A DNA stretch of 64,000 bases, from the NCBI GenBank assembly GCA_965242525.1, contig OZ251459.1, positions 2,537,037 to 2,601,036 of the forward strand. The letters run 5' to 3'. Below the pieces are notes generated by a model. That model saw nothing but the letters and a program-made list of their open reading frames with translations, made no database searches and was not told the DNA's origin. Below, piece after piece: positions 9,701 to 64,000 of the stretch; position 1 is the stretch's first letter; each line of letters starts with the position of its first letter. Source of the stretch: an uncultured Candidatus Binatia bacterium (GTDB lineage Bacteria > Desulfobacterota > Binatia > UBA9968 > JAJDTQ01). The translations under genes were made by a program, and so were the position numbers.

Positions 9701-9974
9701 CCCATGCCTGCTTGCGGGCGGCCTCCAGTTCCTCTTCCAGCTCGGCCCGTTCTTCGGCGCTGGTGAGCCGCAGCGTGTCCTTGACCTGCGGCAGCAGGTC
9801 CCGGTCCAGGAACGACACGACCTCCGCGGCCTTGAGGTTCATGATCCGGTACAGGCCGAAGTCCAGGTCGCCGCGGTCGAGTTGGAACATCTCGTGCAAC
9901 AGGGTCTTCAGCCGGTCGAGCTTTTCCCCGGAGCCGGGGGCCGGCGCGGTTCGGGAAGGCGTCGAATCGCTCAT
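6789..9974 (-). CDS. mod: Type III R-M Mod subunit, beta-class N6-adenine/N4-cytosine DNA methyltransferase with long N-terminal extension
   Basis: Motif IV (VYIDPPYNT) precedes motif I (DFFAGSGATGHAV), the beta-class order. 1061 aa. Co-directional with res. Confidence 0.85.
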   Translation of the reverse strand: MSDSTPSRTAPAPGSGEKLDRLKTLLHEMFQLDRGDLDFGLYRIMNLKAAEVVSFLDRDLLPQVKDTLRLTSAEERAELEEELEAARKQAWELGLSPNAEPPPKIAKLNRRLAEMKKDADAEADVYNHLANFFARYYTEGDFVSQRRYSSGGRSAYLVPYDGEEVKLHWANADQYYVKTTENYASYAFTVGAGDAARRVRFEIAAADNEKDNVKEANGRQRRFVLARGKGAAAVEDGELAVRFEHRPLTEGEKKRWPGNGVSQQGCINEATVERILNAVDPDWQAALTAPAPTNANGERTLLAKHLDRYTAKNSFDYFIHKDLSGFLRQELDLYLNTEVLNLDDLEQGDAPRLDRALARVRAMRHVGGKIIDFLAQLEDFQKRLWLKKKLVLETNWCVTLDRVPEALHPEVAANAAQCEEWVELFAVDEIAGDLTNGNAAWSVPPSVDFLKANPFLVLDTRHFDRDFTDRLLAALSDAGPLDEQTDGLLVHGENFQALNLLQARYGGQVQCVYIDPPYNTASSSILYKNDLKDSSWLSLMENRLPLAKALLVQDGILCCAIDDEEVWRLRALLQDVFDKEIGVAPVRSTPIGRTSVGKLSPTHEYALFYGSEKAVPGPLLKTEKEKQRYPLSDESGRYAWRNLLRTGTNDRRADRPKLYYPIYVSDDDTLRIPKMEWDEQSSEYRILEQPRKDETVVWPVKEQDGTKIEKNWERGWERVSQEAGEYRVQRNGNGPGTEGISIHFMQRMDVESTPKTWWGDAKYASSNHGARVLKELFGDNPFDFPKSVALVEDCIRASGGDEAGARVLDFFAGSGATGHAVVNLNREDGGQQRYTLVEIGRHFDTIILPRMKKVVYSPDWKNGKPVSRNGVSQLFEYVRLESYEDTMDSLVVAPLSDGQKDLLAKNPEMAEDYRLRYALGVETSGSPALLGNELRDPFAYTVSVVRDGVRCEVPVDLPETFNYLIGLRVESRRRIDDILTITGMEAEGRRCLILWRNIHETDYAALDAWFDRNRDRFVSSLDLIYVNGDHTLNAMQHPGETWVAETLDPVFRELMFEEIES

Positions 9975-10087
9975 GGGGTGTCCGTTCCGTTGGTGGATTC
10001 CAGGCCCCGGGTCGGGCCTTCGATCATGGGTCGTAGTCTATAACCGTTGTCGAGGTCCTTCAAGAACCCGTCGCCGGGCCCGTGTCT

Positions 10088-16304: not shown

Positions 16305-16414
16305 GGCTCTTCCGGCTTTCGAGTGGGCAAGGCAGGCGGGAAAGGGGAGCGACAGGGTTCAGGCCGTCATCTCCGCAGACGCCCACCTCGTCATTCCCGC
16401 GAAAGCGGGAATCC
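16305..16414 (+). repeat. Composite ~110-bp intergenic repeat ending in a 27-bp palindromic REP unit (GTCATTCCCGCGAAAGCGGGAATCC)
   Basis: Near-duplicate of 23917-24053 (ggctcttc.ggctttcg.gtggg.aaggcagg.gggaaagg...). The REP unit is at 16388-16414. Confidence 0.75.
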
Positions 16415-23916: not shown

Positions 23917-24053
23917 GGCTCTTCGGGCTTTCGTGTGGGTAAGGCAGGAGGGAAAGGGAAGCGACAGGGACCACGCCGTCACTGCTCCGCAGCCACCTGC
24001 CCCGTCATTCCCGCAGCCGCCCACTCACGTCATTCCCGCGAAAGCGGGAATCC
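23917..24053 (+). repeat. Second copy of the composite repeat ending in the 27-bp REP unit
   Basis: Aligns with 16305-16414. REP unit at 24027-24053, plus a half unit cgtcattcccgc at 24002-24013. Confidence 0.75.
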
Positions 24054-49672: not shown

Positions 49673-49786
49673 CTCCCGGGGAAGGCGACGAGTCCGGGGC
49701 CGCATGGCCTTCGGAAGATGTTGACACGGGGCCGTCCTCGACCCGCACTCGAGGAAGCAAGCCAGACCTGACAGGGGGAACGATCG

Positions 49787-50197
49787 GTGACCCGGAAGCA
49801 TCTCTTGCAGGAAACGGCGGCGTGCGGCAAGTACGCCCCGCTCCACCGCCATCTTCTCGCTCTCCACACGGCGCCGGAATGGCGTGCCTCGTTCGGCGAG
49901 GTCGAGGCGATCCTGGGCTTTCGCCTGCCGGACTCCGCACGACTGCACCGCCCCTGGTGGTCGAACCGGAAAAGCGACCGCGGCCACAGCCATGCGCTCG
50001 CCTGGCAGGCGGCAGGATGGCGGACCCGCGCTGTCGATCTCGAAGCGGAGAGGCTGACCTTCGAGCGCACGGACGACGCACCCTCCCGGCGCGGTGCGTT
50101 CTCGGTCTCGGAGATCCTGCCCCCTCACGACCCCGGTCCGTGGCCCCGGGGCTTTACCGCGAGCCGCGAGCAGATCTACGGCGACGACGTCCGCTGA
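49787..50197 (+). CDS. Hypothetical protein with antitoxin-like C-terminal tail, upstream of a PIN remnant
   Basis: 136-aa GTG-initiated ORF with a GGGGGAA Shine-Dalgarno. The tail ...FTASREQIYGDDVR resembles VapB-type antitoxin ends. It stops 6 nt before the PIN fragment. Confidence 0.45.
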   Translation: MTRKHLLQETAACGKYAPLHRHLLALHTAPEWRASFGEVEAILGFRLPDSARLHRPWWSNRKSDRGHSHALAWQAAGWRTRAVDLEAERLTFERTDDAPSRRGAFSVSEILPPHDPGPWPRGFTASREQIYGDDVR

Positions 50198-50203
50198 CCG
50201 GCC

Positions 50204-50362
50204 GTGTTCATCGACACCAACGTTCTCGTCGCGGTCCGGTTCGTGACCGCGCCCCATCATGCGAGGGCCCGTGCGAGCGTCGATCGCGCTGGCGGCGGTG
50301 CGGAACCCCTGCGCATCAGCCGTCAAGTCTTGCGCGAGTCAAGGCCCAAGTCCCCGGCATGA
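50204..50362 (+). pseudogene. 5' remnant of a PIN-domain (VapC-like) toxin gene, truncated at the boundary of repeat unit 2
   Basis: GTG-initiated VFIDTNVLVAVRF...RISRQVLRE is the canonical PIN N-terminus (first acidic residue in IDTN). The frame ends after 52 codons, where the duplicated leader begins (50350). Confidence 0.45.
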
Positions 50363-53029
50363 AGTTGCAATGGCCTCCATGACCGGCGTGTTCGAAGAAC
50401 GGTTGCAGTCATGCGGCTCCCCGATTCGGGGCATGTCGGGCTGGATAGCTCTCGCCTCGTTCGTGGCAATGCTTTCCGCGTGCGGGGGAGGCGGCGGGAC
50501 GTCGTCCGTTTCGGCGCCGTCCCGGTCGGGGCCCTCGCCCGCGCCGATACCCGCGCCGCCGCCCGCAGCACCGCCGACACAGCCATCACAGCCATCACAG
50601 CCATCACAGCCGGCGCCGACACCGGCGCCGCCATCACAGCCGGCGCCATCTCCACCGCCCCCGCCGTCCCCGGCGCCCGCACCACCGTCGCCACCCCCAC
50701 CACCGGCGCAGGCGGCGGGCACTACGGTGCGCGCGTTTGCTTCGGAGGTCCGCTACACCTCTCCGGCGGGCCATCCCAGGCAGGCGACCACCACCTACAG
50801 GGCCGAAACCCTGGAGCCTGCGACGAACCCCCGGACCGCCAGTTCCTGGGAGACCAGCGAGTACAACGCCCAAGCCGGCCTGGGGCTGATCCGCGCCAGC
50901 ACGGGATACGCGGCGCGCACCACCGGGCGGCCGGGCGGCGGCGGCAGGACCATCGCCATCGTTGACCAGCTAATCCCCGTTGACGATGCCGAGTCCGTCG
51001 GCCATCCCGATTTGCAGGGCGTGGAGACGGTGACCGTCTCGGGACGGGGAAGCAGCGGCTCCCACGGAACGCGCATCGCCGGAGTCGCCGCCGCCCGGCG
51101 CAACGGATTCGGGATGCACGGGGTCGCCTACAACGCGAACATCGTCAACATCCCCTACGCCGACGACGGCCGGAGGGACTTCGAGGCGATCATGGCGTCC
51201 ATCGCCGGCCTGACCGGGCGTTACGTGGAATGGGACTCCAGGCCCGAGGCGAGCGCCCATGTCGGGAGCTTCAGCATCGGCGTGAGGGGGCCGCGCGACA
51301 TCGAGCCCGCCAGGAGGGGGATGCGGCTCATGGCCCGGGAGGGCCGCGTGATCACCGCTTCCGCGGGGAACGAGGGTGGCGCGGACCCGGCGCACTATCC
51401 TTCCCTCGGAGTGGCGGACGAGGGCGTCGCGGGGTGGGGCATCGTGGTGGGCGCGCTGGACGCGACGGGCGAGGCCGCGGCGTCGTGGAGCAACCGGTGC
51501 GGCAGGGTCAAGAGGTGGTGCCTGTTCGCGCCGGGGACGGACATCAACTCCACCAGCGGCGTTTACTTCGGTACGAGCCGGAATTATCAGGCCAGTTCGG
51601 GCACGTCCTTCGCCGCGCCGCACGTGGCCGGGGCCGTGGCCGCGGTATGGGGCGCGTTTCCGAACAAGACCGGCACGCAGATCGTCGATCGCATCCTGAG
51701 CACCGCCCGGCAGGTGGACACCGCGAACGGCGCTTACGACGCCGACGGCCTTTCCGCCATCTACGGCCACGGCGCCCTCGACCTCGGCGCGGCGATGAAC
51801 CCGGTGGGCTTCACCAGCCTGGCGGTGGGCGGTTCCGGGACGGTCCCGGTGCGGCGGAGCTTCGTCTCCCTGCCGCCGGGCTTCCGGCATCGCCCCACCG
51901 CGGCGCTGCGGGACGCCATCGTCTATGACACGCAGATGTTCCCGTTCCTGCACGACCTGAACGGCGCGGTTCGAGCGCACCGCTGGCGTTCGGCCGCGAG
52001 CGCGGTGGATGATTTCCTGTCCCTGCGGCGCTACGTCCGGTGGGCGTCGCGTCCGGGGCGCCGGACCCGGTTGGAGTCGGCAGGGTCGCAACGGGACCGC
52101 ACCGCCCGGGACCCGTCGGACGAGGTACGCGGCCCCCAGTTTCTCGTGTCGGCAACGCCGGCCCTGTCGTTCCGGTTCGGTCCGAGCTTCGGAGTCCGGG
52201 GGGTTTCGAACGACTTCGTGGCCCGGCGCCTGGGGCGGGGCTTGTTCGGGGAGGGGTTCGTGGTGGGGCCGTTCACGGAGTTGGTGGGGAAAGGCGCGGC
52301 GCTGGGGGTGGACTGGCGTGGGGACGAGCGCACGCGGCTGGACTTGGTGGGGAAGACGGGGTCGGGTTATTTCGGGGACGGTCGGGCGTGGCTGGCTTCG
52401 TTCGGGGTGACCCGGGGGTTGGGGTCCGGCCTGAGTCTGGGGGCGCGCTACGGGGCGTTGCGGGAGCGGGGTTCGCTGCTGGGCATCCGGGGGAGCGGTG
52501 CGTTCGGTGGGGCTTCGGGTGGGCGCACGGACTTCGTGGACCTGGGGGTGGAGTGGCAGGTCGCATCCGGCCCGGTGTTCTTCGGCAGCGTCGGTCGGGG
52601 TTCGACGAAGGGCGAAGCGGGCGGTTCCGGGTCGCTGATAACGGGTTGGCGGGGAGGCCGTGGCGAGTCGTTCGCGTTGGGAGGCGAGTGGTCGGACGTG
52701 TGGCGTGATGCGGACCGTCTGACCCTGTCGGCGTCTTCGCCGTTGCGTACGCGGGGGGCGGGGATGTACGTGGACGTGCCGGACCGGGAGTTGGGGGACG
52801 GAGTGGTGGGGTACACGCGGCATTGGGTGGACCTGTCGCCTCGGGGTCGGGAAGTGCGGTTGCAACTGGTGTACGAGACGGACATGGCGCCGGGTGCGGC
52901 GTTGACCCTGGGCAGCTTCCTGCGGCTGCACCCGGACCACGACCCGGGGGCGGCGTCGGAATACGGCGCGGCCGCAAGACTGCGGGTGGATTTCTGACGG
53001 GAGCGTTCCCGCGCCGGACGCCTGACGAC
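50350..53029 (+). repeat. Segmental repeat unit 2
   Basis: See unit 1. Confidence 0.85.
50370..52997 (+). CDS. S8 serine protease lipoprotein autotransporter, paralogue 2
   Basis: Same architecture (AMLSAC|GGGG, IAIVDQ, GSHGTRIAG, SGTSFAAPHVAG, ...RLRVDF). It has the longest Pro-rich linker of the three. Track start 50259 lies in unrelated upstream sequence. Confidence 0.85.
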   Translation: MASMTGVFEERLQSCGSPIRGMSGWIALASFVAMLSACGGGGGTSSVSAPSRSGPSPAPIPAPPPAAPPTQPSQPSQPSQPAPTPAPPSQPAPSPPPPPSPAPAPPSPPPPPAQAAGTTVRAFASEVRYTSPAGHPRQATTTYRAETLEPATNPRTASSWETSEYNAQAGLGLIRASTGYAARTTGRPGGGGRTIAIVDQLIPVDDAESVGHPDLQGVETVTVSGRGSSGSHGTRIAGVAAARRNGFGMHGVAYNANIVNIPYADDGRRDFEAIMASIAGLTGRYVEWDSRPEASAHVGSFSIGVRGPRDIEPARRGMRLMAREGRVITASAGNEGGADPAHYPSLGVADEGVAGWGIVVGALDATGEAAASWSNRCGRVKRWCLFAPGTDINSTSGVYFGTSRNYQASSGTSFAAPHVAGAVAAVWGAFPNKTGTQIVDRILSTARQVDTANGAYDADGLSAIYGHGALDLGAAMNPVGFTSLAVGGSGTVPVRRSFVSLPPGFRHRPTAALRDAIVYDTQMFPFLHDLNGAVRAHRWRSAASAVDDFLSLRRYVRWASRPGRRTRLESAGSQRDRTARDPSDEVRGPQFLVSATPALSFRFGPSFGVRGVSNDFVARRLGRGLFGEGFVVGPFTELVGKGAALGVDWRGDERTRLDLVGKTGSGYFGDGRAWLASFGVTRGLGSGLSLGARYGALRERGSLLGIRGSGAFGGASGGRTDFVDLGVEWQVASGPVFFGSVGRGSTKGEAGGSGSLITGWRGGRGESFALGGEWSDVWRDADRLTLSASSPLRTRGAGMYVDVPDRELGDGVVGYTRHWVDLSPRGREVRLQLVYETDMAPGAALTLGSFLRLHPDHDPGAASEYGAAARLRVDF

Positions 53030-53065
53030 CGTATCCTGCGCATTCGTGAAGGAACGGTGAAGTCC

Positions 53066-54283
53066 ATGAAGAAGAAAGCGGCTGAAGCCGCCGCGCCCAA
53101 CGGCGCATACCGGTCCTTGGTGGGCGGCATCAGCGGCGTCGTTGAGGACGCCAGACGCACCGCGGTCCGCTCTGTGAACGCGGCCATGACGGCCGCGTAC
53201 TGGTTGATCGGGCGGCACATCGTGGAGTTCGAGCAGGGCGGGAGAGACCGCGGTGAGTACGGCGGCAAAGTGGTGGAGCGGCTTGCGACGGACCTTTCCG
53301 CCCGCTACGGGCGAGGGTTCTCGGTCCGCAACCTCTGGCAGATGCGAGCGTTCTATGCAGGTTGGCCGGTCCTCCGGCCAGAACCGGCCGAGTCCGCGGC
53401 GGCGGAAAAACCGCAGACACCGTTTGCAGAATCACGGTCAAGGGAAAAACCGCAGACGGCGCCTGCAGAATCGGAGCCAACGCAAAAACTGCTGGAGGCG
53501 TCCGGAGATTCTCTGCTGGCCGGAATAGCCAGGCGCTTCCCTCTGCCATGGTCCGCCTATGTGCGCCTTCTGGCCGTCAAGAACCCAAACGCCCGTTCGT
53601 TCTACGAGGCGGAGGCCTTGCGCGCCGGCTGGTCCGTCCGTCAGCTTGACCGTCAGATCAACTCCCGGTTCTACGAGCGCACCGCCCTGTCCAGGGACAA
53701 GGCGAATATGCTCAGGAAGGGCGAGCAAGCGCAACTCGCGGATGCCGTGATACCGGAGGAAGCCATCAAGGACCCATTTGTCCTGGAGTTCCTGGACCTC
53801 AAGGACGAGTATTCCGAGAGCGACTTGGAGGACGCCCTGATCCAGCGCTTGGAGAGCTTCCTGATGGAACTCGGCGGCGACTTCTGCTTCATTGGCAGGC
53901 AACGACGCCTGCGCATCGACGACGAGTGGTACCGCGTGGACCTGATGTTCTTCCACCGAGTGCTGCGCTGCCTCGTCCTCATCGACTTGAAGGTAGGCAA
54001 GTTCACCCACGCCGATGCCGGCCAAATGCACCTCTACCTCAACTACGCCCGTGAACACTGGGTCCACGCGCACGAAAACCCGCCCGTCGGCCTGATCCTC
54101 TGCGCCCAAAAGGGAGAATCCCTCGCTCGTTACGCACTCGAAGGCTTGCCGAACAAGGTAATGGCCGCCGAATACCGCACCGCCTTGCCGGACGAAGCGT
54201 TGCTGGTGGCCGAAATCGAGCGGGCGAGAGACGAACTTGACCCGAAGAACGATCATCTCTCAGACCGGCGGGAAGGAGCATAG
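53066..54283 (+). CDS. YhcG-family PDDEXK nuclease (DUF1016)
   Basis: Blocks AYWLIGRHIVEFEQGG, YGRGFSVRNLWQMRAFY, LPWSAYVRLL, ...FYE.EA...GWSVRQLDRQI and a nuclease core YRVDLMFFH...LVLIDLKVGK. Confidence 0.85.
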   Translation: MKKKAAEAAAPNGAYRSLVGGISGVVEDARRTAVRSVNAAMTAAYWLIGRHIVEFEQGGRDRGEYGGKVVERLATDLSARYGRGFSVRNLWQMRAFYAGWPVLRPEPAESAAAEKPQTPFAESRSREKPQTAPAESEPTQKLLEASGDSLLAGIARRFPLPWSAYVRLLAVKNPNARSFYEAEALRAGWSVRQLDRQINSRFYERTALSRDKANMLRKGEQAQLADAVIPEEAIKDPFVLEFLDLKDEYSESDLEDALIQRLESFLMELGGDFCFIGRQRRLRIDDEWYRVDLMFFHRVLRCLVLIDLKVGKFTHADAGQMHLYLNYAREHWVHAHENPPVGLILCAQKGESLARYALEGLPNKVMAAEYRTALPDEALLVAEIERARDELDPKNDHLSDRREGA

Positions 54284-54315
54284 ACTTTGGCCCGATCACT
54301 TCTGCTGTCCGGAAT

Positions 54316-56812
54316 CGGCGTGTTCGAAGAACGGTTGCAGTCATGCGGCTCCCCGATTCGGGGCATGGCGGGCTGGATAGCTCTCGCCTCGTTCGTGGCA
54401 ATGCTTTCCGCGTGCGGCGGCGGGACGTCGCCCGTTTCGACGCCGTCCTCGCCACAACCGCCATCGTCGGAGCCGACACCGGCGCCCCCGCGCGCGCCCA
54501 CGTCGGCCCGGGCGGCGGACGCCACGGTGCGCGCGTTCGCTTCGGAGGTCCGCTATACCTCCCCTGCGGGCCATCCCCGGCCGGCGACCACCATCTACAG
54601 GGCCGAAACCCTGGAGCCTGCGACGAACCCCCGGACCGCCGGTTCCTGGGAGACCGGCGAATACAAGGCATCCACCGGGCTGCCGCTGATCCGCGCCAGC
54701 ACGGGATACGCGGCGCGCACCACCGGGCAGCCGGGCGGCGGAGGCAGGACCATAGCCATCGTCGATACGAAGATCCCCGTGGACGACGGCGAGTCCGTCG
54801 GCCATCCCGATTTGCAGGGCGTGAAGTCGGTGGACGTCTCGGGGCAGGTAGTCAACATCGACCACGGAACACGCGTCGCCGGAATCGCCGCGGCTCGGCG
54901 CAACGGGTGGGGGGTGCACGGAGTCGCCTACAACGCGAACATCGTCGGCCTGAGCTCCGGGGACGAAACGAGGAGGGACTTCGAGGCGATCATGGCGTCC
55001 ATCGCCGGCCTGACCGGGAGTTACGGCGCCGGCGACCGGAAATGGGACTCCAGGCCGGAGGCGAGCGCCCACGTCGGGAACTTCAGCCTCGGCCTGAGGC
55101 GTCCCGAGCACGACCTCGATCCGGTCAGGAGGGGGATGCGGCTCATGGCCCGGGAGGGCCGCGTGATGGTCGCGGCCGCGGGGAACGACGGCGAGGTCGA
55201 TCCGTCCACCTATCCCGCCATCGGAGTGGCGGACGAGGGCGTCGCAGGGTGGGCCATGGCGGTGGGCGCGCTGGACGCGACGGGCGAGGCCGCGGCGTCG
55301 TGGAGCAACCGGTGCGGCAGGGTCAAGAGGTGGTGCCTGTTCGCGCCGGGGACGGACATCAACTCTACCCAAGGCGCCTACCATGACACGTCCCGGGATC
55401 ATGGCCCCAGCGAGGGCACGTCCTTGGCCGCGCCGCACGTGGCCGGGGCCGTGGCCGCGGTCTGGGGCGCGTTTCCGAACAAGACCGGCACGCAGATCGT
55501 CGATCGCATCCTGAGCACCGCCCGGCAGGTGGACACCGCGAACGGCGCTTACGACGCCGACGGCCTTTCCGCCATCTACGGCCACGGCGCCCTCGACCTC
55601 GGCGCGGCGATGAACCCGGTGGGCTTCACCAGCCTGGCGGTGGGCGGCTCCGGGACGGTCCCGGTGCGGCGGAGCTTCGTCTCCCTGCCGCCGGGCTTCC
55701 GGCACCGCCCCACCGCGGCGCTGCGGGACGCCATCGTCTATGACACCCAGATGTTCCCGTTCCTGCACGACCTGAACGGCGCGGTTCGAGCGCACCGGCA
55801 GCGTTCGGCCGCGAGCGCGGTGGACGATTTCCTGTCCCTGCGGCGCTACGTCCGGTGGGCGTCGCGTCCGGGCCGCCGGACCCGGTTGGAGTTGGCAGGG
55901 CCGCAACGGGACCGCACCGGCCGGGAGCCGTGGGACGAGGTACGCGGCCCGCAGTTTCGCGTGGCGGCAACGCCGGCCCTGTCGTTCCGGTTCGGTCCGA
56001 GCTTCGGAGTCCGGGGGGTATCGAACGACTTCGTGGCCCGGCGCCTGGGGCGGGGCTTGTTCGGGGAGGGGTTCGTGGTGGGGCCGTTCACGGAGTTGGT
56101 GGGGAAAGGCGCGGCGCTGGGGGTGGACTGGCGTGGGGACGAGCGCACGCGGCTGGACTTGGTGGGGAAGACGGGGTCGGGTTATTTCGGGGACGGTCGG
56201 GCGTGGCTGGCTTCGTTCGGGGTGACCCGGGGGTTGGGGTCCGGCCTGAGTCTGGGGGCGCGCTACGGGGCGTTGCGGGAGCGGGGTTCGCTGCTGGGCA
56301 TCCGGGGGAGCGGTGCGTTCGGTGGGGCTTCGGGTGGGCGCACGGACTTCGTGGACCTGGGGGTGGAGTGGCAGGTCGCATCCGGCCCGGTGTTTTTCGG
56401 CAGCGTCGGTCGTGGGTTGACGAAGGGCGAAGCGGGCGGCCCCGGGTCGCTGATAACGGGGTGGAGGGGAGGCCGTGGGGAGTCGTTCGCGCTGGGAGGC
56501 GAGTGGACGGACGTGTGGCGTGATGCGGACCGTCTGACCCTGTCGGCGTCTTCGCCGTTGCGCCCGCGGGGAGCGGGGATGTACGTGGAGGTGCCGGACC
56601 GGGAGTTGGGGGACGGAGTGGTGGGATACACGCGGCATTGGGTGGACCTGTCGCCTCGGGGTCGGGAATTGCGGTTGCAACTGGTGTACGAGACGGACAT
56701 GGCCCCGGGTGCGGCGTTGACCCTGGGGAGCTTCCTGCGGCTGCACCCGGACCACGACCCGATGGCGGCGTCGGAATACGGCGCGGCCGCCAGACTGCGG
56801 GTGGATTTCTGA
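54316..56812 (+). repeat. Segmental repeat unit 3 (shorter 5' homology; 3' homology ends at the stop codon)
   Basis: Homology to units 1 and 2 starts at cggcgtgttcgaagaacggttgcag. Confidence 0.8.
54365..56812 (+). CDS. S8 serine protease lipoprotein autotransporter, paralogue 3
   Basis: MAGWIALASFVAMLSAC|GGG, IAIVDT, IDHGTRVAG, EGTSLAAPHVAG, ...RLRVDF. The track's TTG 54287 start lies outside the duplicated block. An in-frame GTG at 54320 is an alternative start. Confidence 0.8.
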   Translation: MAGWIALASFVAMLSACGGGTSPVSTPSSPQPPSSEPTPAPPRAPTSARAADATVRAFASEVRYTSPAGHPRPATTIYRAETLEPATNPRTAGSWETGEYKASTGLPLIRASTGYAARTTGQPGGGGRTIAIVDTKIPVDDGESVGHPDLQGVKSVDVSGQVVNIDHGTRVAGIAAARRNGWGVHGVAYNANIVGLSSGDETRRDFEAIMASIAGLTGSYGAGDRKWDSRPEASAHVGNFSLGLRRPEHDLDPVRRGMRLMAREGRVMVAAAGNDGEVDPSTYPAIGVADEGVAGWAMAVGALDATGEAAASWSNRCGRVKRWCLFAPGTDINSTQGAYHDTSRDHGPSEGTSLAAPHVAGAVAAVWGAFPNKTGTQIVDRILSTARQVDTANGAYDADGLSAIYGHGALDLGAAMNPVGFTSLAVGGSGTVPVRRSFVSLPPGFRHRPTAALRDAIVYDTQMFPFLHDLNGAVRAHRQRSAASAVDDFLSLRRYVRWASRPGRRTRLELAGPQRDRTGREPWDEVRGPQFRVAATPALSFRFGPSFGVRGVSNDFVARRLGRGLFGEGFVVGPFTELVGKGAALGVDWRGDERTRLDLVGKTGSGYFGDGRAWLASFGVTRGLGSGLSLGARYGALRERGSLLGIRGSGAFGGASGGRTDFVDLGVEWQVASGPVFFGSVGRGLTKGEAGGPGSLITGWRGGRGESFALGGEWTDVWRDADRLTLSASSPLRPRGAGMYVEVPDRELGDGVVGYTRHWVDLSPRGRELRLQLVYETDMAPGAALTLGSFLRLHPDHDPMAASEYGAAARLRVDF

Positions 56813-56817
56813 GAGCC

Positions 56818-56991
56818 GGAACCTCTGAACAATCGGGACATCCGGGATGGCTTCCCGATGCCCTCCCCCTGACGCCCCTATCCCCGTTCGTCCTGAGCGT
56901 AGCGAAGCGGAGACCTCCGTTCATCCTGAGCGTAGCGAAGCGAAGTCGAAGGACGCGCTCATGCCCCCTGTCCCGATTGTTCAGAGGTTCC
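56818..56991 (+). repeat. MITE-like element (174 bp) with perfect 23-bp terminal inverted repeats
   Basis: GGAACCTCTGAACAATCGGGACA (56818-56840) and TGTCCCGATTGTTCAGAGGTTCC (56969-56991). The interior has two tandem gtcctgagcgtagcgaagcg units. It begins 6 nt after the paralogue-3 stop. Confidence 0.85.
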
Positions 56992-57149
56992 AGCCGTGTG
57001 TCGGGAGGTCCCGAAGTGACCTGCCCGGTGGTAGATGGTATGGTATAGCCATGCCTTCAGCCCTGCGACCCCTGCGGCTCTTCGCCCGATCCCTTCAGCG
57101 ACGGATCCCGTGAGGGTACGGTCGTGGCGCGCGGACAGGAGATGCAATC

Positions 57150-60100
57150 GTGCGGACCGTAAAGCAGGCTTGCAGACCCCGGCCAAGCGTCTTCGATCCC
57201 ACGCGCCGCGACACGGTGCTCGACCTGACGGACCTGGTGGACGGCCGCATCGACCCGGCCGGATTCTTTGCCGAGAACCACGTCACGGAGGGTATGAGGA
57301 CCCTGCTCACCGAGGGGTTCCGGCGTCTGGAAGGGAAGTCGGCGCAAGGGGTTTTCAAGCTGACCCAGGCCATGGGCGGCGGCAAGACCCACAACCTCCT
57401 GGCGCTTGGGCTCCTGGCAGGGCATCCCGACTTCCGGGCCGAGGTCATGGGCGGTTTCTACACCCCGGACCCTGAACTCGGGCCGGTGCGCGTGGTGGCC
57501 TTTTCCGGGCGCGAGAGCGACGCGCCGCTCGGCATCTGGGGCGCCATCGCGGAGCAGCTCGGCAGGAAGGAGCAGTTCGCCGACTACTACGCGCCTCTGG
57601 CCGCCCCGGGCCAGACCGCCTGGGTGAAGCTGCTCGAGGGCGAGCCGCTCGTCATCATGCTGGACGAGTTGCCGCCCTATTTCCTCAACGCGGCATCCAG
57701 GAGCATCGGCAACTCGGACCTGTCCGCGGTCACCACCACCGCGCTGTCGAACCTCCTGGTCGCGGTCGGACGGGACGAACTGCGCAACGTCTGCCTGGTG
57801 ATCTCCGACCTCAAGGCGACGTACGGCGCGGGGGCCGCGCAGATCGTCGCGGCGCTGGAAGACCTGGAGGCCGAGACCGGCCGCACCGCCATGAACCTGG
57901 AGCCCGTCCGCATGAACACGGACGAGTTCTACCACATCCTCCGCAAGCGCATCTTCGAGGCGCTGCCGGACGAGGCGGAGGTCCATGAGGTGGCGCAGGG
58001 CTACGCCAAGGCGGTGCGCGAAGCGAAGCAGATGGACGTGACGAACGCCTCGCCCGAGCGGTTCGCCGCGCAGGTCGCCGAGTCGTACCCCTTCCATCCG
58101 GCCATCCGCGACCTCTATGGCCGCTTTCGGGAGAACCAGGGTTTCCAGCAGACCCGCGGGCTGATTCGCCTGATGCGGATCGTCGTGTCGCGGATCTGGG
58201 ATACCGGCCATGACCCCCACCTCGTCGCCGCCCACGACGTGGACCTGGAGAGCCGCGAGACCCTCACCGAGATCAACCAGATCAACCCGACCCTCGAGAA
58301 CGCCATCGCCCACGACATCGCGTCGGGCGGCGCCGCCGTGGCCGAGACCATCGACGCCAACCTGGGAGGCGGCGAGGACGCCCGGGACGTCATGCGGCTG
58401 CTCCTGGTCGCTTCGCTGGCGAACGTCCCGAACGCCGTCAAGGGGCTCGCCGTCCCCGAGATCGTCGCCAACCTGTGCGCGCCCGGGCGAGACCTCTCCA
58501 AGCTCCAGAACGAGGTGGTCGCGCGCCTCGCGACCGCGGCCTGGTACCTGCACACGACCAACGACGGGCGTCTGCACCTGCGCAACGTGCAGAACCTCAT
58601 CGCCCGCGTGACCACCACCGCGGGCGCCTACCTCCGCGACCAGGCCACGAAGGAGCTCAAGGAACGGCTGACGGAGATCTTCGATCCGGTCGAGGCCTCC
58701 TGCTACCAGCGCCTGCAACCGCTCCCGGCCGTGGACGAGATCGACGTCCAGCCCGACCGGGTGACGCTGGTGGTGACCGAGCCGCATCCGGCGGGCCTGC
58801 ACCCGGACCTTGCCATCCTGTACGATCAACTCACCTACCGGAACCGCATCTGTTTCCTGACCGGGCAGCGGGCCTTCGGCTCACTGCTGGAACGCGCGCG
58901 GGAGTTGAAGGCCATCAACCAGATCATCGGCGAGATGCAGGAGGAAGGCGTGGCCGATGGCGACCCGCAGATGCAACAAGCTCGGGACCAGCTTATGCCG
59001 CGCTTCCTCGCCCAGTTCCACAGCGCCGTCCGGGAAACTTTCACCACGCTATACTACCCCACCAAGGACCGGCTGGCGAAGGTGGACTTTCTCATGGAGT
59101 TCAAGGAGAACCGCTACGATGGCGAAGAACAGGTGAGGGAGGCGCTCGCGGACCGGCAGAAGTACACCACGGACGTCGCGAGCGAGAACTTTCGCAAGAA
59201 GCTGGAAGCCCGGCTGTTCACCCAGAAGTCCATGTTGTGGACGGAGGTCGTGCGCCGGGCCGCGGCCAACCCCGTGTGGCAGTGGCACCATCCCGACGCC
59301 CTCGACCGGATGAAGCAGGACTGCCTGCACAAGGACCTCTGGCGGGAGGAGGGGAGCTACGTCGACAAGGGACCCTTCCCAAAGCCCACGACCAGCGTGC
59401 GCATCCGGGAGCTGTCCCGCGACGAGGACACCGGAGCGGTGAAGCTGCGGCTCGCTCCCGCCAACGCCGACCGGCTCCATGCAGAGTTCGGCGGCGCGGC
59501 GACCCGGGCTTCGATGGCGGTGGAGGGAGCGGATTTCGAGACCGCGGAGCTTCGCGTTTCCTTCCTCGCAGTGGACTCCGGGGGCGAGCATGACACCGGG
59601 GAGCCAGTGGAGTGGTCGAACCGTATCACATTGAAGTCGCGCGAGTACCCGGACGGCGACCGACGTATGGTCGAGCTCCGCTCGGCTCCGGAAGCGCCCA
59701 TCCGCTACACCACGGACGGCTCCGACCCGAAGGTCAACGGCGGCGCCTATGAAGGGCCGTTCGCGGCGCCGGAGGGCGTCCGCCTGGTGCTCGCGGTCGC
59801 AGAAAAGGATGGAATCGCTTCCGAGGTCCACCGGCGCGACATAGCCGACAGACAGGAGGCCAAGCCCATCGACAAGAGCCGTCCCGCGGTGTGGCGTCCG
59901 TCCGGAGGGTTCTCGTTCCAGGCCACCCGCAGCGCCTACGGCTTCATCAACCGGTTGAAGAAGCACGAAGCCTCCGCGGGCGGACTGCGCTTCGCGGCCC
60001 AGGCCGGCGGGACTTGGGGCGAGGTCATCCTCTCCGACGACGTGGAGTTGGGCGGCGACCGGGTAGAGCAGACGGTCGAGCAACTCAGGGGGCTCGTGCC

Positions 60101-60215
60101 CGACGGCGAAGTCTCCGTCGAGGCGAAGCTCGTGCGCTACGACACGGGCCAGCGTTTCCTGGACTGGGTGGCGGAGACCCGGGCGGAATACGACCGCGAC
60201 GACGTGGAGCCTTGA
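57150..60215 (+). CDS. DUF499-type (BrxC/PglY-like) ATPase, anti-phage-associated
   Basis: 1021 aa. N-terminal ...FFAENHVTEGMRTLL...FKLTQAMGGGKTHNLLALGLL (Walker A) and LVIMLDELPPY (Walker B). GTG start 8 nt after AGGAG. Confidence 0.8.
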   Translation: MRTVKQACRPRPSVFDPTRRDTVLDLTDLVDGRIDPAGFFAENHVTEGMRTLLTEGFRRLEGKSAQGVFKLTQAMGGGKTHNLLALGLLAGHPDFRAEVMGGFYTPDPELGPVRVVAFSGRESDAPLGIWGAIAEQLGRKEQFADYYAPLAAPGQTAWVKLLEGEPLVIMLDELPPYFLNAASRSIGNSDLSAVTTTALSNLLVAVGRDELRNVCLVISDLKATYGAGAAQIVAALEDLEAETGRTAMNLEPVRMNTDEFYHILRKRIFEALPDEAEVHEVAQGYAKAVREAKQMDVTNASPERFAAQVAESYPFHPAIRDLYGRFRENQGFQQTRGLIRLMRIVVSRIWDTGHDPHLVAAHDVDLESRETLTEINQINPTLENAIAHDIASGGAAVAETIDANLGGGEDARDVMRLLLVASLANVPNAVKGLAVPEIVANLCAPGRDLSKLQNEVVARLATAAWYLHTTNDGRLHLRNVQNLIARVTTTAGAYLRDQATKELKERLTEIFDPVEASCYQRLQPLPAVDEIDVQPDRVTLVVTEPHPAGLHPDLAILYDQLTYRNRICFLTGQRAFGSLLERARELKAINQIIGEMQEEGVADGDPQMQQARDQLMPRFLAQFHSAVRETFTTLYYPTKDRLAKVDFLMEFKENRYDGEEQVREALADRQKYTTDVASENFRKKLEARLFTQKSMLWTEVVRRAAANPVWQWHHPDALDRMKQDCLHKDLWREEGSYVDKGPFPKPTTSVRIRELSRDEDTGAVKLRLAPANADRLHAEFGGAATRASMAVEGADFETAELRVSFLAVDSGGEHDTGEPVEWSNRITLKSREYPDGDRRMVELRSAPEAPIRYTTDGSDPKVNGGAYEGPFAAPEGVRLVLAVAEKDGIASEVHRRDIADRQEAKPIDKSRPAVWRPSGGFSFQATRSAYGFINRLKKHEASAGGLRFAAQAGGTWGEVILSDDVELGGDRVEQTVEQLRGLVPDGEVSVEAKLVRYDTGQRFLDWVAETRAEYDRDDVEP

Positions 60216-60217
60216 GC

Positions 60218-60883
60218 GTGGAAACCCGTTCCAAGCCGCTGGGGTTCGGTTTCCGGCCCGAAGAGTCGGAGCACCACTTCGTGGTGACCGTGCCTTCGAG
60301 GAGCCGTGAAGACGTCCTCGTCGCCGAGTACCTGCGCTTCGACCCGGCGACGGGCTACGGGCCTCCCTCGCTCGGAGTCGGCCCCCATGATTCCAGGCTA
60401 CGGGCCGCGCTGCCGCGCGCCAAGTGGGACGCCATCGCCGACGAGGCGCGCGTCGAGTTCAACCGCCGGCTCAAGAAGCAGGGCCTGCCGCCGGGACGCT
60501 GGAAGCGGGGCGACACCCCGGTCGCCCGCCTGCTGGGCAAGGAGCTGACGCTCCTCGCCTGGGCGGTGGAAGACGCCGACCCGGCGCTCATCCCCCCCGC
60601 GCTCAAGAACTGGCTGGGGCTCGCGCCCGAAGAACGGTGGTGGCTGTTCACCATGACCAACGCCGCCACCGGCCACGCCCTGCACGGCAGGAACAAGGGC
60701 TGGCGCAAGGCGGTGCGTTTCGCCCTCACCGAGAACCCGGTGACCGGCGACCGCCAGGAGCGCCAGAGCGACATCTTCCGGCTGGTGGCCGCGGAGGAGC
60801 GTTCGGACCCCCCGCGCCGGGACCGGAGCCGGGAGGACGCCGCGCCGCGCAGGGCGGTTGCGGCGGGCCGCGGCGGGGCGTGA
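60218..60883 (+). CDS. DUF3780-like protein (assignment by context and recollection)
   Basis: GTG start 2 nt after the DUF499 stop. 221 aa beginning ...KPLGFGFRPEESEHHFVVTVP.... The position immediately after a DUF499 gene and before DUF1156 matches the known three-gene association. Confidence 0.5.
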   Translation: METRSKPLGFGFRPEESEHHFVVTVPSRSREDVLVAEYLRFDPATGYGPPSLGVGPHDSRLRAALPRAKWDAIADEARVEFNRRLKKQGLPPGRWKRGDTPVARLLGKELTLLAWAVEDADPALIPPALKNWLGLAPEERWWLFTMTNAATGHALHGRNKGWRKAVRFALTENPVTGDRQERQSDIFRLVAAEERSDPPRRDRSREDAAPRRAVAAGRGGA

Positions 60884-60929
60884 GGCGCCCGATGCCAAGC
60901 AGCGCGGAGATGCGTTCCTTCGAGGCAGC

Positions 60930-60958
60930 TTGAAGCATTGCCGTCAATCTGCAATCAT
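60930..60958 (+). promoter_or_regulatory. Possible internal promoter for the embedded toxin-antitoxin pair
   Basis: TTGAAG (60930-60935), a 17-nt spacer, then AATCAT (60953-60958). CAGGAG Shine-Dalgarno before ATG 60988. Confidence 0.25.
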
Positions 60959-60987
60959 AACGCTCTCCATTCGCAGGAGTTCAGGCC

Positions 60988-61224
60988 ATGGCCAACGTAA
61001 CCGTACGCAACATCGACGACGACGTGATCGCCTCCCTCAAGGCGCAAGCAAAGGCGCACCACCGGTCCCTGGAGGGCGAGATCCGTCATCTCCTGGCAAC
61101 GCACGTTTCGCGGCGAACGCGGATGGCAGGCTTCCGCGACCGCACGGCGCACCTCAGCGCCCAAACCGAAGACCGCCCTCAAACCGATAGCGTCGTTCTC
61201 CTGCGCGAGGACCGGGATCGTTGA
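60988..61224 (+). CDS. Ribbon-helix-helix antitoxin (FitA/VapB-like)
   Basis: MANVTVRNIDDDVIASLKAQAKAHHRSLEGEIRHLL is the typical Arc/FitA-type RHH N-terminus. Its stop overlaps the TTG start of the PIN gene (TTGA). Confidence 0.8.
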   Translation: MANVTVRNIDDDVIASLKAQAKAHHRSLEGEIRHLLATHVSRRTRMAGFRDRTAHLSAQTEDRPQTDSVVLLREDRDR

Positions 61225-62048
61225 AGCTGATCGTTGACGCCAGCATCGCGGTCAAGTGGTTCTTCACGGAATCCCATACGGCCGAGGCCCGACGGCTTCT
61301 GGCGCACCGCATCGTCTTGCATGCCCCCAGCCTCATACTCACGGAGGCGGCCAACGTGATATGGAAGAAGGCGCGGCGCAAGGAAATACCGGACGCGCAG
61401 CCCTACCTTGCCGAGCTTGTCGCTCTTTCGGACGTGGTGACACTGCGTCCGTCCGCGGACCTCATCGTGCCGGCAATGACCATTGCCCTGGCGCTCGACC
61501 ACCCCATCTACGACTGTCTCTATCTCGCGTGCGCCGAAGCCGAAGGCGTGCCGCTCGTTACCGCGGACAAGAAGCTGCGAGAGGCTGCCGCACGCAACTC
61601 CGTGGATGTCTGGTACATCGGTGACGAAGACGCCAACCAGCGCATTGACGCCGCGGCCAACGGCTTGGTCATTCCGGAAGACAAACTCCGAGAGCTGATC
61701 GCAGCCTACGCAAACTTCCGTGACACCGCGGATTCCGTGATAGAAACCGTTCCCCTCCGTGGCCGACGGGTCAGGATATTGAGCAAGGAAGACCGGGACC
61801 GCTACCTCGACACTCCCGCTTATCGCCGCCTGGTCAATCTCCTCACGGAACTCTCTTACGACGAACGCATCGACCTGATGGCCCTCGGGTGGCTGGGTCG
61901 GGGGTCCGGTTCCTGGGCTTCGTTGCTTGAACATGCCTACAAATCGGGAATAAACGATACATACACGAAGCATGTCCACTACGAAGCGGGTCTCGGCTTC
62001 TACTGGCAGAAGGGGATCGACCGGCTACGCAAGGCGCAACCAGCGTGA
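61221..62048 (+). CDS. PIN-domain (VapC-like) toxin fused to a C-terminal DUF3775-like domain
   Basis: The N-terminus LIVDASIAVKWF......YDCLYLACAEAEGVPLVTADKKL has the PIN acidic residues. The C-terminus ...LSYDERIDLMALGWLGRGSGSW...HYEAGLGFYWQKGIDRL resembles the DUF3775 consensus (...LVALMWLGRGD...YLEEGL). Confidence 0.7.
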   Translation: MKLIVDASIAVKWFFTESHTAEARRLLAHRIVLHAPSLILTEAANVIWKKARRKEIPDAQPYLAELVALSDVVTLRPSADLIVPAMTIALALDHPIYDCLYLACAEAEGVPLVTADKKLREAAARNSVDVWYIGDEDANQRIDAAANGLVIPEDKLRELIAAYANFRDTADSVIETVPLRGRRVRILSKEDRDRYLDTPAYRRLVNLLTELSYDERIDLMALGWLGRGSGSWASLLEHAYKSGINDTYTKHVHYEAGLGFYWQKGIDRLRKAQPA

Positions 62049-64000
62049 ACACCTCTCCAACCTTCATCGAAACGCAGTTTCCCGTTTCGCGGCTGTCGAA
62101 GGAAAGCTACAAGGAGCGCAAGGCGAACTACAGCCAGACCCTGACCGGGCTCGGCAAGTGGTGGGGCCGCAAGCCGCTGGTGATGGTGCGGGCGATCATC
62201 CTCGGGCTGCTGATGCCCGCCTCGGACGATCCCCGGAAGGACCGGGACGTGTTCCTTGCGCTCCTGACGATGGACGAGGAAGGGCTGTGGCGGCGGAAGA
62301 ACGGCAACATTCCGCTCAAGGAAGTGTATGGGCGGCTGTCGCCGGAGGAGCGGGCCGAGTGGTTTACCCATGACGCCGAACCTGACCGTCCCCGGCTCCG
62401 GAAGGGCACGAAAGCCGCGGATCGAGCGCGCCTGCAACGCATGGTCTTCGAGCGCATGGGCTATGACGAGAAGCTCAAGTTGTGCGACCGGCCCGAGCAC
62501 CTGGAAGGACCGTCCCCAGACGCCTGGAACGCCATCAACCGGCATCTGGGTACGGAGGCAGCCAGCCTGCCCGAGCTGGTGCGGGAGTTGGGCAAGCGCC
62601 GTTTCGGGCGCGTGCCGCGGGTGGGGGATGCGTTTTGCGGGGGCGGCAGCGTGCCTTTCGAGGCGGCCCGGCTCGGTTGCGAAGCCTATGGCTCCGACCT
62701 GAACCCGGTGGCCGCCCTGCTCACCTGGGGCGCGCTGAACATCGTCGGCGGCGGGGAGGATGTCGCCGAACGGATCCGGGCGGCGCAAACCGAGGTATTC
62801 GAAGCGGTGGACCGCCAAGTCACGGAATGGCGCATCGAGCACGACGAGGCCGGCTGGCGGGCCGACGCCTTCCTCTACTGCACGGAGACCGCCTGCCCCG
62901 AATGCGGCTGGCGCGTGCCGCTCGCGCCGAGCTGGGTCATCGGCGAGAAGACGCGAGCCGTTGCGCGGCTGACGCCCGAGCCCGCGGAAAGGCGCTTCGC
63001 CATCGACGTCCGTTCGGGTGTTGGCCGGGAAGCGCTTGCCGCCGCCCGCAACGCCGGTACCGTGCGGCAGTCGCGGCTGGAATGTCCCAACCCCGCTTGC
63101 AACGCATCCACGCCCATGACCGCCATCCGCGGCGACCGGCGCGGGGACGGCGGACGCGGCCACGGGCTGCGGCAATGGGAGAACGACGACCTCGTGCCTC
63201 GGCCGGACGACGTGTTCCAGGAACGGCTGTACTGCGTGCGCTGGCGCCTCCCGTCCCTCGCCGCGCTGCTGTGGATGGAGCAGCGGTTGCGGGCGGCTGG
63301 CCGGCTTGAAGATGGGGCGGGCGGGAGGCCCGTGCCCCGGACGGGCACGCCGGTCCCGGGACACTTGGATTCCCGCTTGCGCGGGAATGACGGAGGGGGC
63401 GGGATGTCCGTGTTCGACCAGGACATGCCGGGCCCAGAGGGGTTGCGACGGGAGGCTCCGGCGGGCGGGGTGACTGCCGTGCTGGAAGGCGCCCGGCGGA
63501 ACTTTCATGCGGGCGAGACGCCCGCGTTCCCAGGAAGCGACCCTTCGCCAGCCGGCGGGATGCCCGCATTCCCAGGAAGCGAACCTTCGCTAGCCGGCGG
63601 GATCCCCGCGTTCCCAGAGGCGCCTCTCAGCCGTCATTCCCGCGAAAGCGGGAATCCAGAGACGCCCGTGCCCCGGGGGAGCACGCCGATCCCAGGAGCG
63701 TCCGGGATGCCGGATGTTGCACGGCGGGACGCTCATACAGGCGAGATGCCCGCGCTCCGAAGGAGCGCGCCAGTCCCAGGAGGGTTGCGCCGGGATGTTC
63801 GTGCGGAAGGGATGCTCGCGTTTCCGGACGCTTCACCGCCGCCCGTGCCGGAGTGGGTGGACCTCGAATGCGCGATTGCGGCCCTGGTCGAACGACTCGA
63901 AGCCGACGAGCAACGCGAAGTCGCGAAGCTGCGCAAGCGCGACTGGCCGGCCGAAGACCGCGCAGTCGAGGAGGCGCAACGCGAGTTCGAGGCCAAGAAG
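62045..64000 (+). CDS. DUF1156 domain DNA-methylase-like protein, anti-phage-associated; 3' end outside the window
   Basis: This ORF is absent from the track because it has no stop inside the window. Hand translation of frame 2 from GTG 62045 (overlapping the PIN stop as GTGA) gives TFIETQFPVSRLSKESYKERKA...GKWWGRKPLVMVRA... and the SAM motif VGDAFCGGGSVPFEAARLGCEAYGSDLNPVA. The frame stays open to nt 64000. Confidence 0.8.
   Translation, partial: MNTSPTFIETQFPVSRLSKESYKERKANYSQTLTGLGKWWGRKPLVMVRAIILGLLMPASDDPRKDRDVFLALLTMDEEGLWRRKNGNIPLKEVYGRLSPEERAEWFTHDAEPDRPRLRKGTKAADRARLQRMVFERMGYDEKLKLCDRPEHLEGPSPDAWNAINRHLGTEAASLPELVRELGKRRFGRVPRVGDAFCGGGSVPFEAARLGCEAYGSDLNPVAALLTWGALNIVGGGEDVAERIRAAQTEVFEAVDRQVTEWRIEHDEAGWRADAFLYCTETACPECGWRVPLAPSWVIGEKTRAVARLTPEPAERRFAIDVRSGVGREALAAARNAGTVRQSRLECPNPACNASTPMTAIRGDRRGDGGRGHGLRQWENDDLVPRPDDVFQERLYCVRWRLPSLAALLWMEQRLRAAGRLEDGAGGRPVPRTGTPVPGHLDSRLRGNDGGGGMSVFDQDMPGPEGLRREAPAGGVTAVLEGARRNFHAGETPAFPGSDPSPAGGMPAFPGSEPSLAGGIPAFPEAPLSRHSRESGNPETPVPRGSTPIPGASGMPDVARRDAHTGEMPALRRSAPVPGGLRRDVRAEGMLAFPDASPPPVPEWVDLECAIAALVERLEADEQREVAKLRKRDWPAEDRAVEEAQREFEAKK
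63290..63850 (+). repeat. Cluster of REP-like palindromic units and tandem repeats lying in-frame inside the DUF1156 CDS (boundaries approximate)
   Basis: An inverted 27-bp REP unit lies at 63367-63393 and a direct unit at 63631-63657. There are 2.4 x 42-bp tandem repeats at 63521-63619. Several short palindromes occur (gcgggcgagacgcccgc, gcgggatgcccgc, gcggggatccccgc is present as gcgggatccccgc). Confidence 0.7.

Follow-up and report, generated by a model that had tools for sequence, protein, structure and literature searches.

A candidate mobile toxin-antitoxin cassette with a PIN-DUF3775 toxin in the cargo slot of a DUF499-DUF3780-DUF1156 (BREX-related, Hma-like) defence locus

How does a toxin-antitoxin pair come to lie between the core genes of an anti-phage operon, and does its position make it a part of the defence? 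The question is raised by a 64,000-nt stretch of the genome of an uncultured Candidatus Binatia bacterium (contig OZ251459.1, positions 2,537,037 to 2,601,036; hereafter the window). From position 57150 to the window end, in a region of about 68% G+C, five consecutive genes on the plus strand encode a DUF499 ATPase, a DUF3780 protein, a ribbon-helix-helix (RHH) antitoxin, a PIN-domain toxin, and the 5' part of a DUF1156 methyltransferase. The first-pass annotation described them as an anti-phage module interrupted by a translationally coupled toxin-antitoxin pair. The reading that we favour, with a probability of about 0.72, is that of a Type-2 DUF499-centred BREX-related (BR), or Hma-like, operon with an acquired, self-regulated VapBC-like cassette of 1.12 kb in a variable cargo slot.

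The first gene of the pair (60988-61224, plus strand) encodes a FitA/VapB-like protein of 78 amino acids (aa) that matches the Pfam family FitA-like_RHH at 9e-16. The second (61221-62048, plus strand, TTG start, 275 aa) matches PIN at 1e-14 over residues 4-123. All 32 sequences compared have the acidic residues D6, E42, D98 and D116 of the PIN domain, which, together with the RHH partner, uphold the toxin-antitoxin identity proposed for the pair. In the AlphaFold2 model of the toxin (pLDDT 85.8) the PIN domain resembles PAE0151 of Pyrobaculum aerophilum (2fe1, TM score 0.83) and also matches VapC4 of Pyrococcus horikoshii (5h4h). The earlier label "PIN toxin" stands as far as this domain goes, but the protein is not a plain PIN toxin: it is a PIN-DUF3775 fusion (DUF3775 at residues 202-268, 1e-7) about twice the usual length of VapC. 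The DUF3775 part had been overlooked in the first-pass annotation. We found 302 homologues of the fusion at E <= 1e-3, mostly of about 276 aa, with a range of 257-302 aa among the full-length matches. A profile search of PDB gave PIN matches only, the plasmids of PLSDB contained PIN-only relatives of VapC and no full-length fusion, and a literature search on DUF3775 returned nothing relevant. By analogy with VapC, the PIN-DUF3775 family is predicted to comprise RNase toxins of the VapC class, which the RHH protein would neutralise.

The toxin family was surveyed by a tblastn scan of species-representative genomes, which yielded 80 loci, mostly in uncultured marine or sponge-type metagenome-assembled genomes. 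In most of them an RHH gene lies directly 5' of the PIN homologue, and in the full-length loci the RHH match stops where the PIN gene begins, consistent with a 4-nt overlap. DUF499, DUF3780 or DUF1156 occurs within 10 kb of none of the 80. Locus L085 contains the same cassette, at 85% nucleotide identity, in an unrelated restriction/ATPase island. The homology spans exactly positions 60926-62048 of the window, that is, from 62 nt before the RHH ATG through the toxin stop codon. Because the family is mostly free-standing and the L085 copy has the same boundaries, the pair is, as judged from this distribution, an autonomous, mobile, normally free-standing VapBC/FitAB-like module of 1.12 kb (60926-62048).

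The left end of the cassette (60926-60987, plus strand) is a putative promoter/operator, delimited by the homology to the L085 copy and containing a conserved motif, ATTGCCGTCAATCTGCAATCATAACGC, about 15-45 nt ahead of the RHH ATG. Divergent free-standing loci have the partly palindromic sequence TGCCAGCAATATGCAATCATAATGCC conserved 5' of RHH, and it is likely to comprise the operator and the -10 region. A candidate -35 box, TTGAAG, is found at 60931-60936. A consensus scan of 56700-62400 revealed no excess of terminators. Two other roles for the pair were considered and rejected. A general operon leader would be expected to precede a coupled gene, and the free-standing copies have no consistent coupled gene downstream. 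A specific partnership of PIN-DUF3775 with DUF1156 was dismissed on two counts, as DUF1156 is near none of the 80 family loci and the pair is absent from all 61 Type-2 loci of the slot survey described below.

The way in which the cassette reached the methylase gene can be followed in close relatives of the window locus, namely L001, L082 and L083, whose toxins are 83-84% identical to that of the window, and L086-L088, whose DUF3780 proteins are 86-93% identical. L087 is without the toxin-antitoxin pair; there an unrelated gene of 215 aa overlaps DUF1156, which starts with ATG, by 4 nt. L001 has the same 215-aa gene and, after it, the former ATG of DUF1156 with 13 codons, then the cassette, and then the rest of DUF1156 from the conserved PTFIETQFP motif on. 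The cassette is flanked by a direct duplication, GCGCCCCGAYCTTCATCG, of about 19 nt, which derives from the DUF1156 5' end (L001 9605-9725 and 10760-10850 against L087 14425-14545). The retained start with its 13 codons and the flanking duplication therefore indicate that the cassette entered the methylase gene at its 5' end. The new DUF1156 start is formed by the last base of the final alanine codon of the toxin (GCA or GCG) and the TG of its TGA stop.

Both stop/start overlaps reported previously are borne out by the sequence: the RHH stop overlaps the PIN start in TTGA at 61221-61224, and the PIN stop overlaps the DUF1156 start in GTGA at 62045-62048. The PIN and DUF1156 starts are each the first possible in their open reading frames (ORFs). 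For PIN the next in-frame start is codon 33, and its use would cost the protein the catalytic D6; for DUF1156 it is codon 46, and most of the DUF1156 domain would be lost. Both junctions are preserved in L001, L082 and L083, as ATGA or GTGA, and the toxin-methylase junction is preserved also in L084. An overlap of 4 nt is the commonest one in bacterial operons and in itself is not beyond chance. The stronger claim, that the methylase is coupled specifically to the toxin gene, is not supported by comparison. At least 11 cargo-free loci among the 61 of the slot survey have the same 4-nt overlap between the DUF3780 stop and the ATG of DUF1156, and in the other cargo-free loci the two lie within about 40 nt of each other. 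In L087 the 215-aa gene overlaps DUF1156 likewise. Coupling of DUF1156 to the gene in front of it, whichever that is, is therefore, by this comparison of loci, the default.

The host operon is defined by the remaining three genes, and their assignment to DUF499, DUF3780 and DUF1156 is confirmed by profile matches in Pfam, PADLOC and NCBIfam, with DUF499 and DUF3780 scoring under the equivalog cutoffs of the latter. The DUF499 gene (57150-60215, plus strand) encodes an AAA+ ATPase of 1021 aa with matches to Pfam DUF499 (2e-24) and, in its C-terminal part, Fn3_assoc (2e-9); there is one Fn3_assoc / CHB_HEX_C_1 match, at residues 840-894. The PADLOC model DUF499 covers residues 1-1020 at 1e-212, and NCBIfam DUF499_antiphage matches in full length with 843 bits (cutoff 1200). 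By these matches the protein is a BrxC-like core ATPase of a Type-2 BR/Hma-like system. The DUF3780 gene (60218-60883, plus strand, GTG start, 221 aa) begins 2 nt past the DUF499 stop. Its product matches Pfam at 2e-50, PADLOC at 4e-45, and NCBIfam DUF3780_antiphage in full length with 166 bits (cutoff 200); 3973 homologues were found. The DUF1156 gene (GTG start) encodes a predicted N6-adenine methyltransferase; it starts at 62045 on the plus strand and runs off the window at 64000 after 651 codons without a stop. It matches Pfam DUF1156 at 3e-21 and PADLOC DUF1156_MTase at 4e-124. In NCBIfam DUF1156_antiphage, residues 8-401 align with profile positions 1-395 of 960 and score 595 bits against a cutoff of 1000, the ORF being truncated by the window end. 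The generic PADLOC models DUF499 and DUF1156_MTase fit far better than the Hma-specific ones, as HmaC matches only residues 129-693 of the ATPase (2e-54) and HmaB only short stretches of the methylase (3e-15). No Rfam families were found in 56000-64000.

DUF499-centred BR systems were defined in a recent survey and equated there with the Hma system of PADLOC (Nucleic Acids Res 2026, PMC12839542). Type 2 is marked by a DUF3780 gene that stands alone, by Fn3-like domains in its ATPase, by an N6-methyltransferase with a DUF1156 N-terminus, a nested TRD and the catalytic motif DPPY, and by an HKD-endoDNase with an SNF2 helicase; in 53% of taxa the Type-2 DUF499 protein has FnIII-like beta-sandwich domains ahead of a C-terminal RRM (PMC12839542). 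The window contains the DUF3780 gene and, to judge from the one Fn3_assoc match in the ATPase and from the DUF1156 N-terminus, probably the next two markers. The complete order, as observed in the relatives, is DUF499, DUF3780, [cargo], DUF1156, [cargo], PLDc_2 + SNF2 helicase. The second cargo position is occupied by ParA-like, RelA_SpoT, GmrSD_N, HEPN, Schlafen-like or AAA_15/21 ATPase genes, and a PLDc_2 (HKD) + SNF2 helicase ends the locus 3' of DUF1156 in L082, L083 and L087. This agrees with the prediction of the first-pass annotation that a helicase gene lies beyond nt 64000. In L082 and L083 the DUF1156 proteins are full-length, contain DPPYADAVNY and exceed the NCBIfam cutoff, with 1343 and 1324 bits. 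The window locus thus probably represents the 5' part of a Type-2 DUF499-centred BR (Hma-like) operon resembling restriction-modification, with a helicase and a second cargo expected further downstream from the gene order of its relatives.

Comparison with the relatives also shows purifying selection on all five genes in the window, which look functional. The ratios of nonsynonymous to synonymous substitution rates (dN/dS) range overall from 0.14 to 0.31, being 0.23-0.25 for DUF499, 0.18-0.29 for DUF3780, 0.16-0.25 for RHH, 0.27-0.31 for PIN-DUF3775, and 0.14-0.20 for the first 400 codons of DUF1156.

Embedding of extra genes in such loci is well documented, and the interruption is not in itself a special feature. 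Embedded genes are present in 62.7% of 1,485 Hma loci, and 7 of 9 tested candidates conferred defence (Payne et al., bioRxiv 10.1101/2024.01.29.577857, "guilt-by-embedding"); the BR survey counts PIN endoRNases among the less common backup effectors of BREX/BR loci (PMC12839542). The particular pair is not mentioned in the text of the BR survey (PMC12839542) or in its examined supplements, and neither DUF3775 nor the RHH-PIN pair is mentioned in the supplements of the BR and Hma papers (PMC12839542; 10.1101/2024.01.29.577857). The slot was surveyed in 80 JGI metagenome loci detected by means of a DUF3780 alignment; the DUF1156 start could be located in 61. Cargo of at least 400 nt between DUF3780 and DUF1156 is present in 13 of the 61 (21%) and in two more loci outside that count. 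The RHH/PIN-DUF3775 pair is found in none of the 61 Type-2 loci; other toxin-antitoxin pairs are. The cargo includes an 82-aa protein and a PIN protein (a VapBC-like pair) in L142, a DUF4258 and MqsA-like pair in L165, an HTH-Peptidase_M78 and DUF3368 pair in L123, a weakly BrnT-like protein in L109, and PD-(D/E)XK nucleases. The slot is therefore a hot spot for cargo, in which toxin-antitoxin-like genes recur independently.

Among the close relatives, the slot contains a type IIG-like N6_Mtase/Eco57I gene (434-1063 aa as called) in L001, L082, L083, L087 and L088. It usually stands beside the 215-aa gene, whose product is nuclease-like, and is missing from the window. In L086 the junction between DUF3780 and RHH is the same as in the window, up to the end of the contig.

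The DUF1156 ORF of the window itself contains, at 63351-63823 (plus strand), an in-frame array of palindromic units resembling repetitive extragenic palindromes (REP) or miniature inverted-repeat transposable elements (MITE). The array, of 473 nt, was recognised by repeat searches and comparison with relatives and is absent from the first-pass annotation. It comprises 2.5 copies of a 42-nt tandem repeat (63512-63617), and the element GTCATTCCCGCGAAAGCGGGAATCCA as an inverted pair, with a 28-nt inverted repeat at 63366-63393 and 63631-63658; as RNA the region folds strongly (z-score -3.6). The REP core ATTCCCGCGAAAGCGGGAAT has two more perfect copies in the window, at 16393-16412 and 24032-24051, and is therefore a dispersed repeat of this genome. 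At the same site L087 has 5 nt, so that the window is longer by 468 nt (156 codons). The array is absent from L087 and L089, covers about 55 aa in L082, about 190 aa in L083 and about 270 aa in L088, and is frameshifted in L001. The NCBIfam DUF1156 profile breaks here between positions 395 and 402 and resumes after a gap of 200-295 aa in the full-length relatives. Part of this gap is a clade-specific coiled-coil insertion that contains the array and probably tolerates loops. Beyond the array the ORF of the window runs on into conserved sequence. Phase variation by means of the array was rejected, since the 42-nt tandem unit equals 14 codons and the frame is kept when the copy number changes.

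We suggest the following mode of action. The cassette would supply its own promoter/operator, the FitA-like antitoxin and the PIN-DUF3775 RNase toxin. By analogy with VapBC/FitAB, the antitoxin would neutralise the toxin and repress the cassette promoter. When the labile antitoxin is not replenished, after loss of the locus or phage-induced shut-off, the PIN RNase would arrest growth. The cassette would then stabilise the defence locus by addiction, or provide a back-up layer of abortive infection, or both, and one or both of these are probably its role. At the toxin stop, coupling or re-initiation would start translation of the methylase, as after DUF3780 in cargo-free loci; its transcription may come from the operon promoter, from the cassette promoter by read-through, or from both.

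Several observations weigh against the acquired, self-regulated cassette in a Type-2 operon. The scan of 56700-62400 found no consensus sigma-70 promoter in the cassette leader. The count of 0/80 core genes near the toxin family comes from a tblastn survey that could miss very distant homologues of DUF499 and DUF1156. The DUF3775 domain, modelled separately with AlphaFold2 (pLDDT 85.8), has no fold match in PDB (best E 0.7), and neither the RHH nor the PIN-DUF3775 protein matches any PADLOC 2.0 model, including the HEC and PDC ones, at E <= 0.01. The left cassette flank in the window shows just a weak remnant of the DUF1156 5' end, and because of that the insertion mechanism is to be read as demonstrated in the relative L001 rather than in the window itself. 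Finally, the window contains neither the helicase nor the catalytic half of the methylase, so that the locus is presumed complete from its relatives. A rival is a purely selfish reading, possible but unlikely in our view, in which an addiction module without any defence role has settled in a recombination-prone slot and the overlap is the cheapest way to restore translation of the methylase. The autonomy and mobility of the cassette, its scar in L001 and the lack of a PADLOC match fit such a module. So does L088 (16084-18270), where an intact RHH gene is followed by a 5' PIN remnant only and then by a DUF5131 gene (566 aa) overlapping a 1318-aa DUF1156 gene. Here the antitoxin seems to have been retained and the toxin lost or replaced; decay of the toxin with persistence of RHH is what is expected of a dispensable module. 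However, genes embedded in Hma, BREX and DISARM loci are often confirmed as defence genes (7 of 9 tested Hma candidates), the L085 copy likewise lies among restriction-modification and ATPase genes, and several unrelated toxin-antitoxin-like pairs use the same slot in other lineages.

The opposite extreme, full functional integration, seems improbable. The RHH-controlled promoter would drive the methylase and the downstream genes, and the toxin would serve as a dedicated back-up effector, set free once the BR system, or its expression, is blocked by a phage, in line with the proposal of embedded RNases as backup effectors in the BREX/BR literature (PMC12839542). The toxin-methylase junction is kept, under purifying selection, in L001, L082, L083 and L084. 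In L083 the DNA-binding domain of RHH and the cassette promoter are deleted, and the antitoxin tail is fused in frame to a cargo protein of the 215-aa family. In this chimera (9207-10004, 265 aa) residues 1-212 belong to the cargo family (58% identical to L087 13846-14493), and residues 224-265 are the tail, 93% identical to residues 37-78 of the RHH protein in the window; the fusion predicts that the L083 toxin would be neutralised by an operon protein. Against this, the toxin family is overwhelmingly free-standing (0/80 loci near DUF1156), its association with the operon is limited to one narrow clade of at least 84% identity, the toxin is absent in L087 and lost in L088, the coupling of DUF1156 is generic, and the pair is in no other Type-2 locus of the 61. 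An intermediate state can be imagined, on which we would place only a small stake: in this clade the horizontally acquired cassette would be partway to domestication as an integral BR layer, its autoregulated promoter feeding the methylase and downstream effectors, and its toxin serving, through DUF3775, as an infection-triggered back-up RNase. The L083 fusion, in which a nuclease-like cargo protein has gained the tail and the RHH domain is lost, would then represent a later stage. The least probable interpretation is a decaying remnant in which the array has inactivated the methylase and the toxin-antitoxin pair keeps a dead island in the genome. The array is large and breaks the family profile, and the L001 gene is frameshifted within it; on the other hand, in the window its 468 extra nt are in frame and the ORF continues beyond it, L082 and L083 have similar arrays and encode full-length, above-cutoff proteins with DPPY, the N-terminal half of the methylase evolves at dN/dS of 0.14-0.20, and the array lies within an insertion that probably tolerates loops.

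With the acquired cassette as the preferred reading, the locus is a clear case of cargo uptake by a defence operon, in which a discrete cassette, a scar in a relative and a start codon re-created from the toxin stop can all be recognised. It adds PIN-DUF3775 and its FitA-like antitoxin to the "guilt by embedding" candidates for phage defence, and the array bears on how proteins tolerate selfish repeats within them. The locus is no new kind of system or regulatory principle, as both the embedding in Hma/BR loci and the coupling of adjacent operon genes are established. The first-pass annotation was right as a description and overstated the significance of what is an instance of documented cargo embedding.

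Other features were observed upstream of the operon. A YhcG/DUF1016 nuclease of the PD-(D/E)XK type (52823-54283, plus strand; PADLOC candidate PDC-S02, 443 bits) lies about 3 kb 5' of the DUF499 gene and is flanked by paralogous subtilase (Peptidase_S8) genes at 50259-52997 and 54287-56812. Just 5' of the DUF499 start there is a MITE-like element (56815-56994) with inverted arms of 35 nt (86% complementary), between which lie two copies of CCGTTCRTCCTGAGCGTAGCGAAGCGRAG. Strongly positive GC skew (up to +0.28) with negative AT skew was observed at 48000-50000, 51500-53000 and 55500-57000. The latter two stretches fall on the 3' parts of the subtilase genes. The first underlies a minus-strand ORF of 919 aa with no Pfam match, which may be the shadow of a third subtilase paralogue on the plus strand.

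The array in the methylase recalls the Rickettsia palindromic elements, reportedly described by Ogata et al. in 2000 as selfish palindromic repeats that have entered protein-coding genes in frame. It differs from them in being tandem or clustered (0 to about 270 aa), in occupying a single site in a defence methylase of a high-GC genome, and in belonging to an unrelated element family. The likeness lies in palindromic units that are in frame in a conserved ORF, in an insertion-tolerant region, and vary in copy number among close relatives. The embedded pair differs from VapBC and FitAB in its toxin, about twice the usual length through a C-terminal all-helical DUF3775 domain that has no fold match in PDB. 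It resembles them in the small RHH gene overlapping by 4 nt a PIN gene with four conserved acidic residues, in the conserved motif upstream of the antitoxin, and in the match of the PIN fold to PAE0151 and VapC4. Compared with Type-2 BR systems, the window shows the ATPase, DUF3780 and the 5' part of the methylase, with DUF499 and DUF3780 under the NCBIfam equivalog cutoffs, and has in addition the RHH and PIN-DUF3775 pair and the in-frame array. It shares with them the DUF499 protein, with a putative Fn3-like domain, the standalone DUF3780 gene, the DUF1156 N-terminus, nucleases or RNases embedded in the core locus and, as seen in close relatives, an HKD (PLDc_2) + SNF2 helicase at the 3' end. 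The distance to Hma is seen in the HmaC and HmaB models, whose matches are much weaker than those of the generic DUF499 and DUF1156_MTase, and in the PIN protein of HEC-03, which is partnered by an ABC ATPase and not by an RHH antitoxin. The core of an ATPase and a methylase (with a helicase) and the nesting of extra genes between core genes are the same in both, and the cargo of Hma likewise includes RNase types: PIN in HEC-03, RelE in HEC-07 and HEPN in HEC-08.

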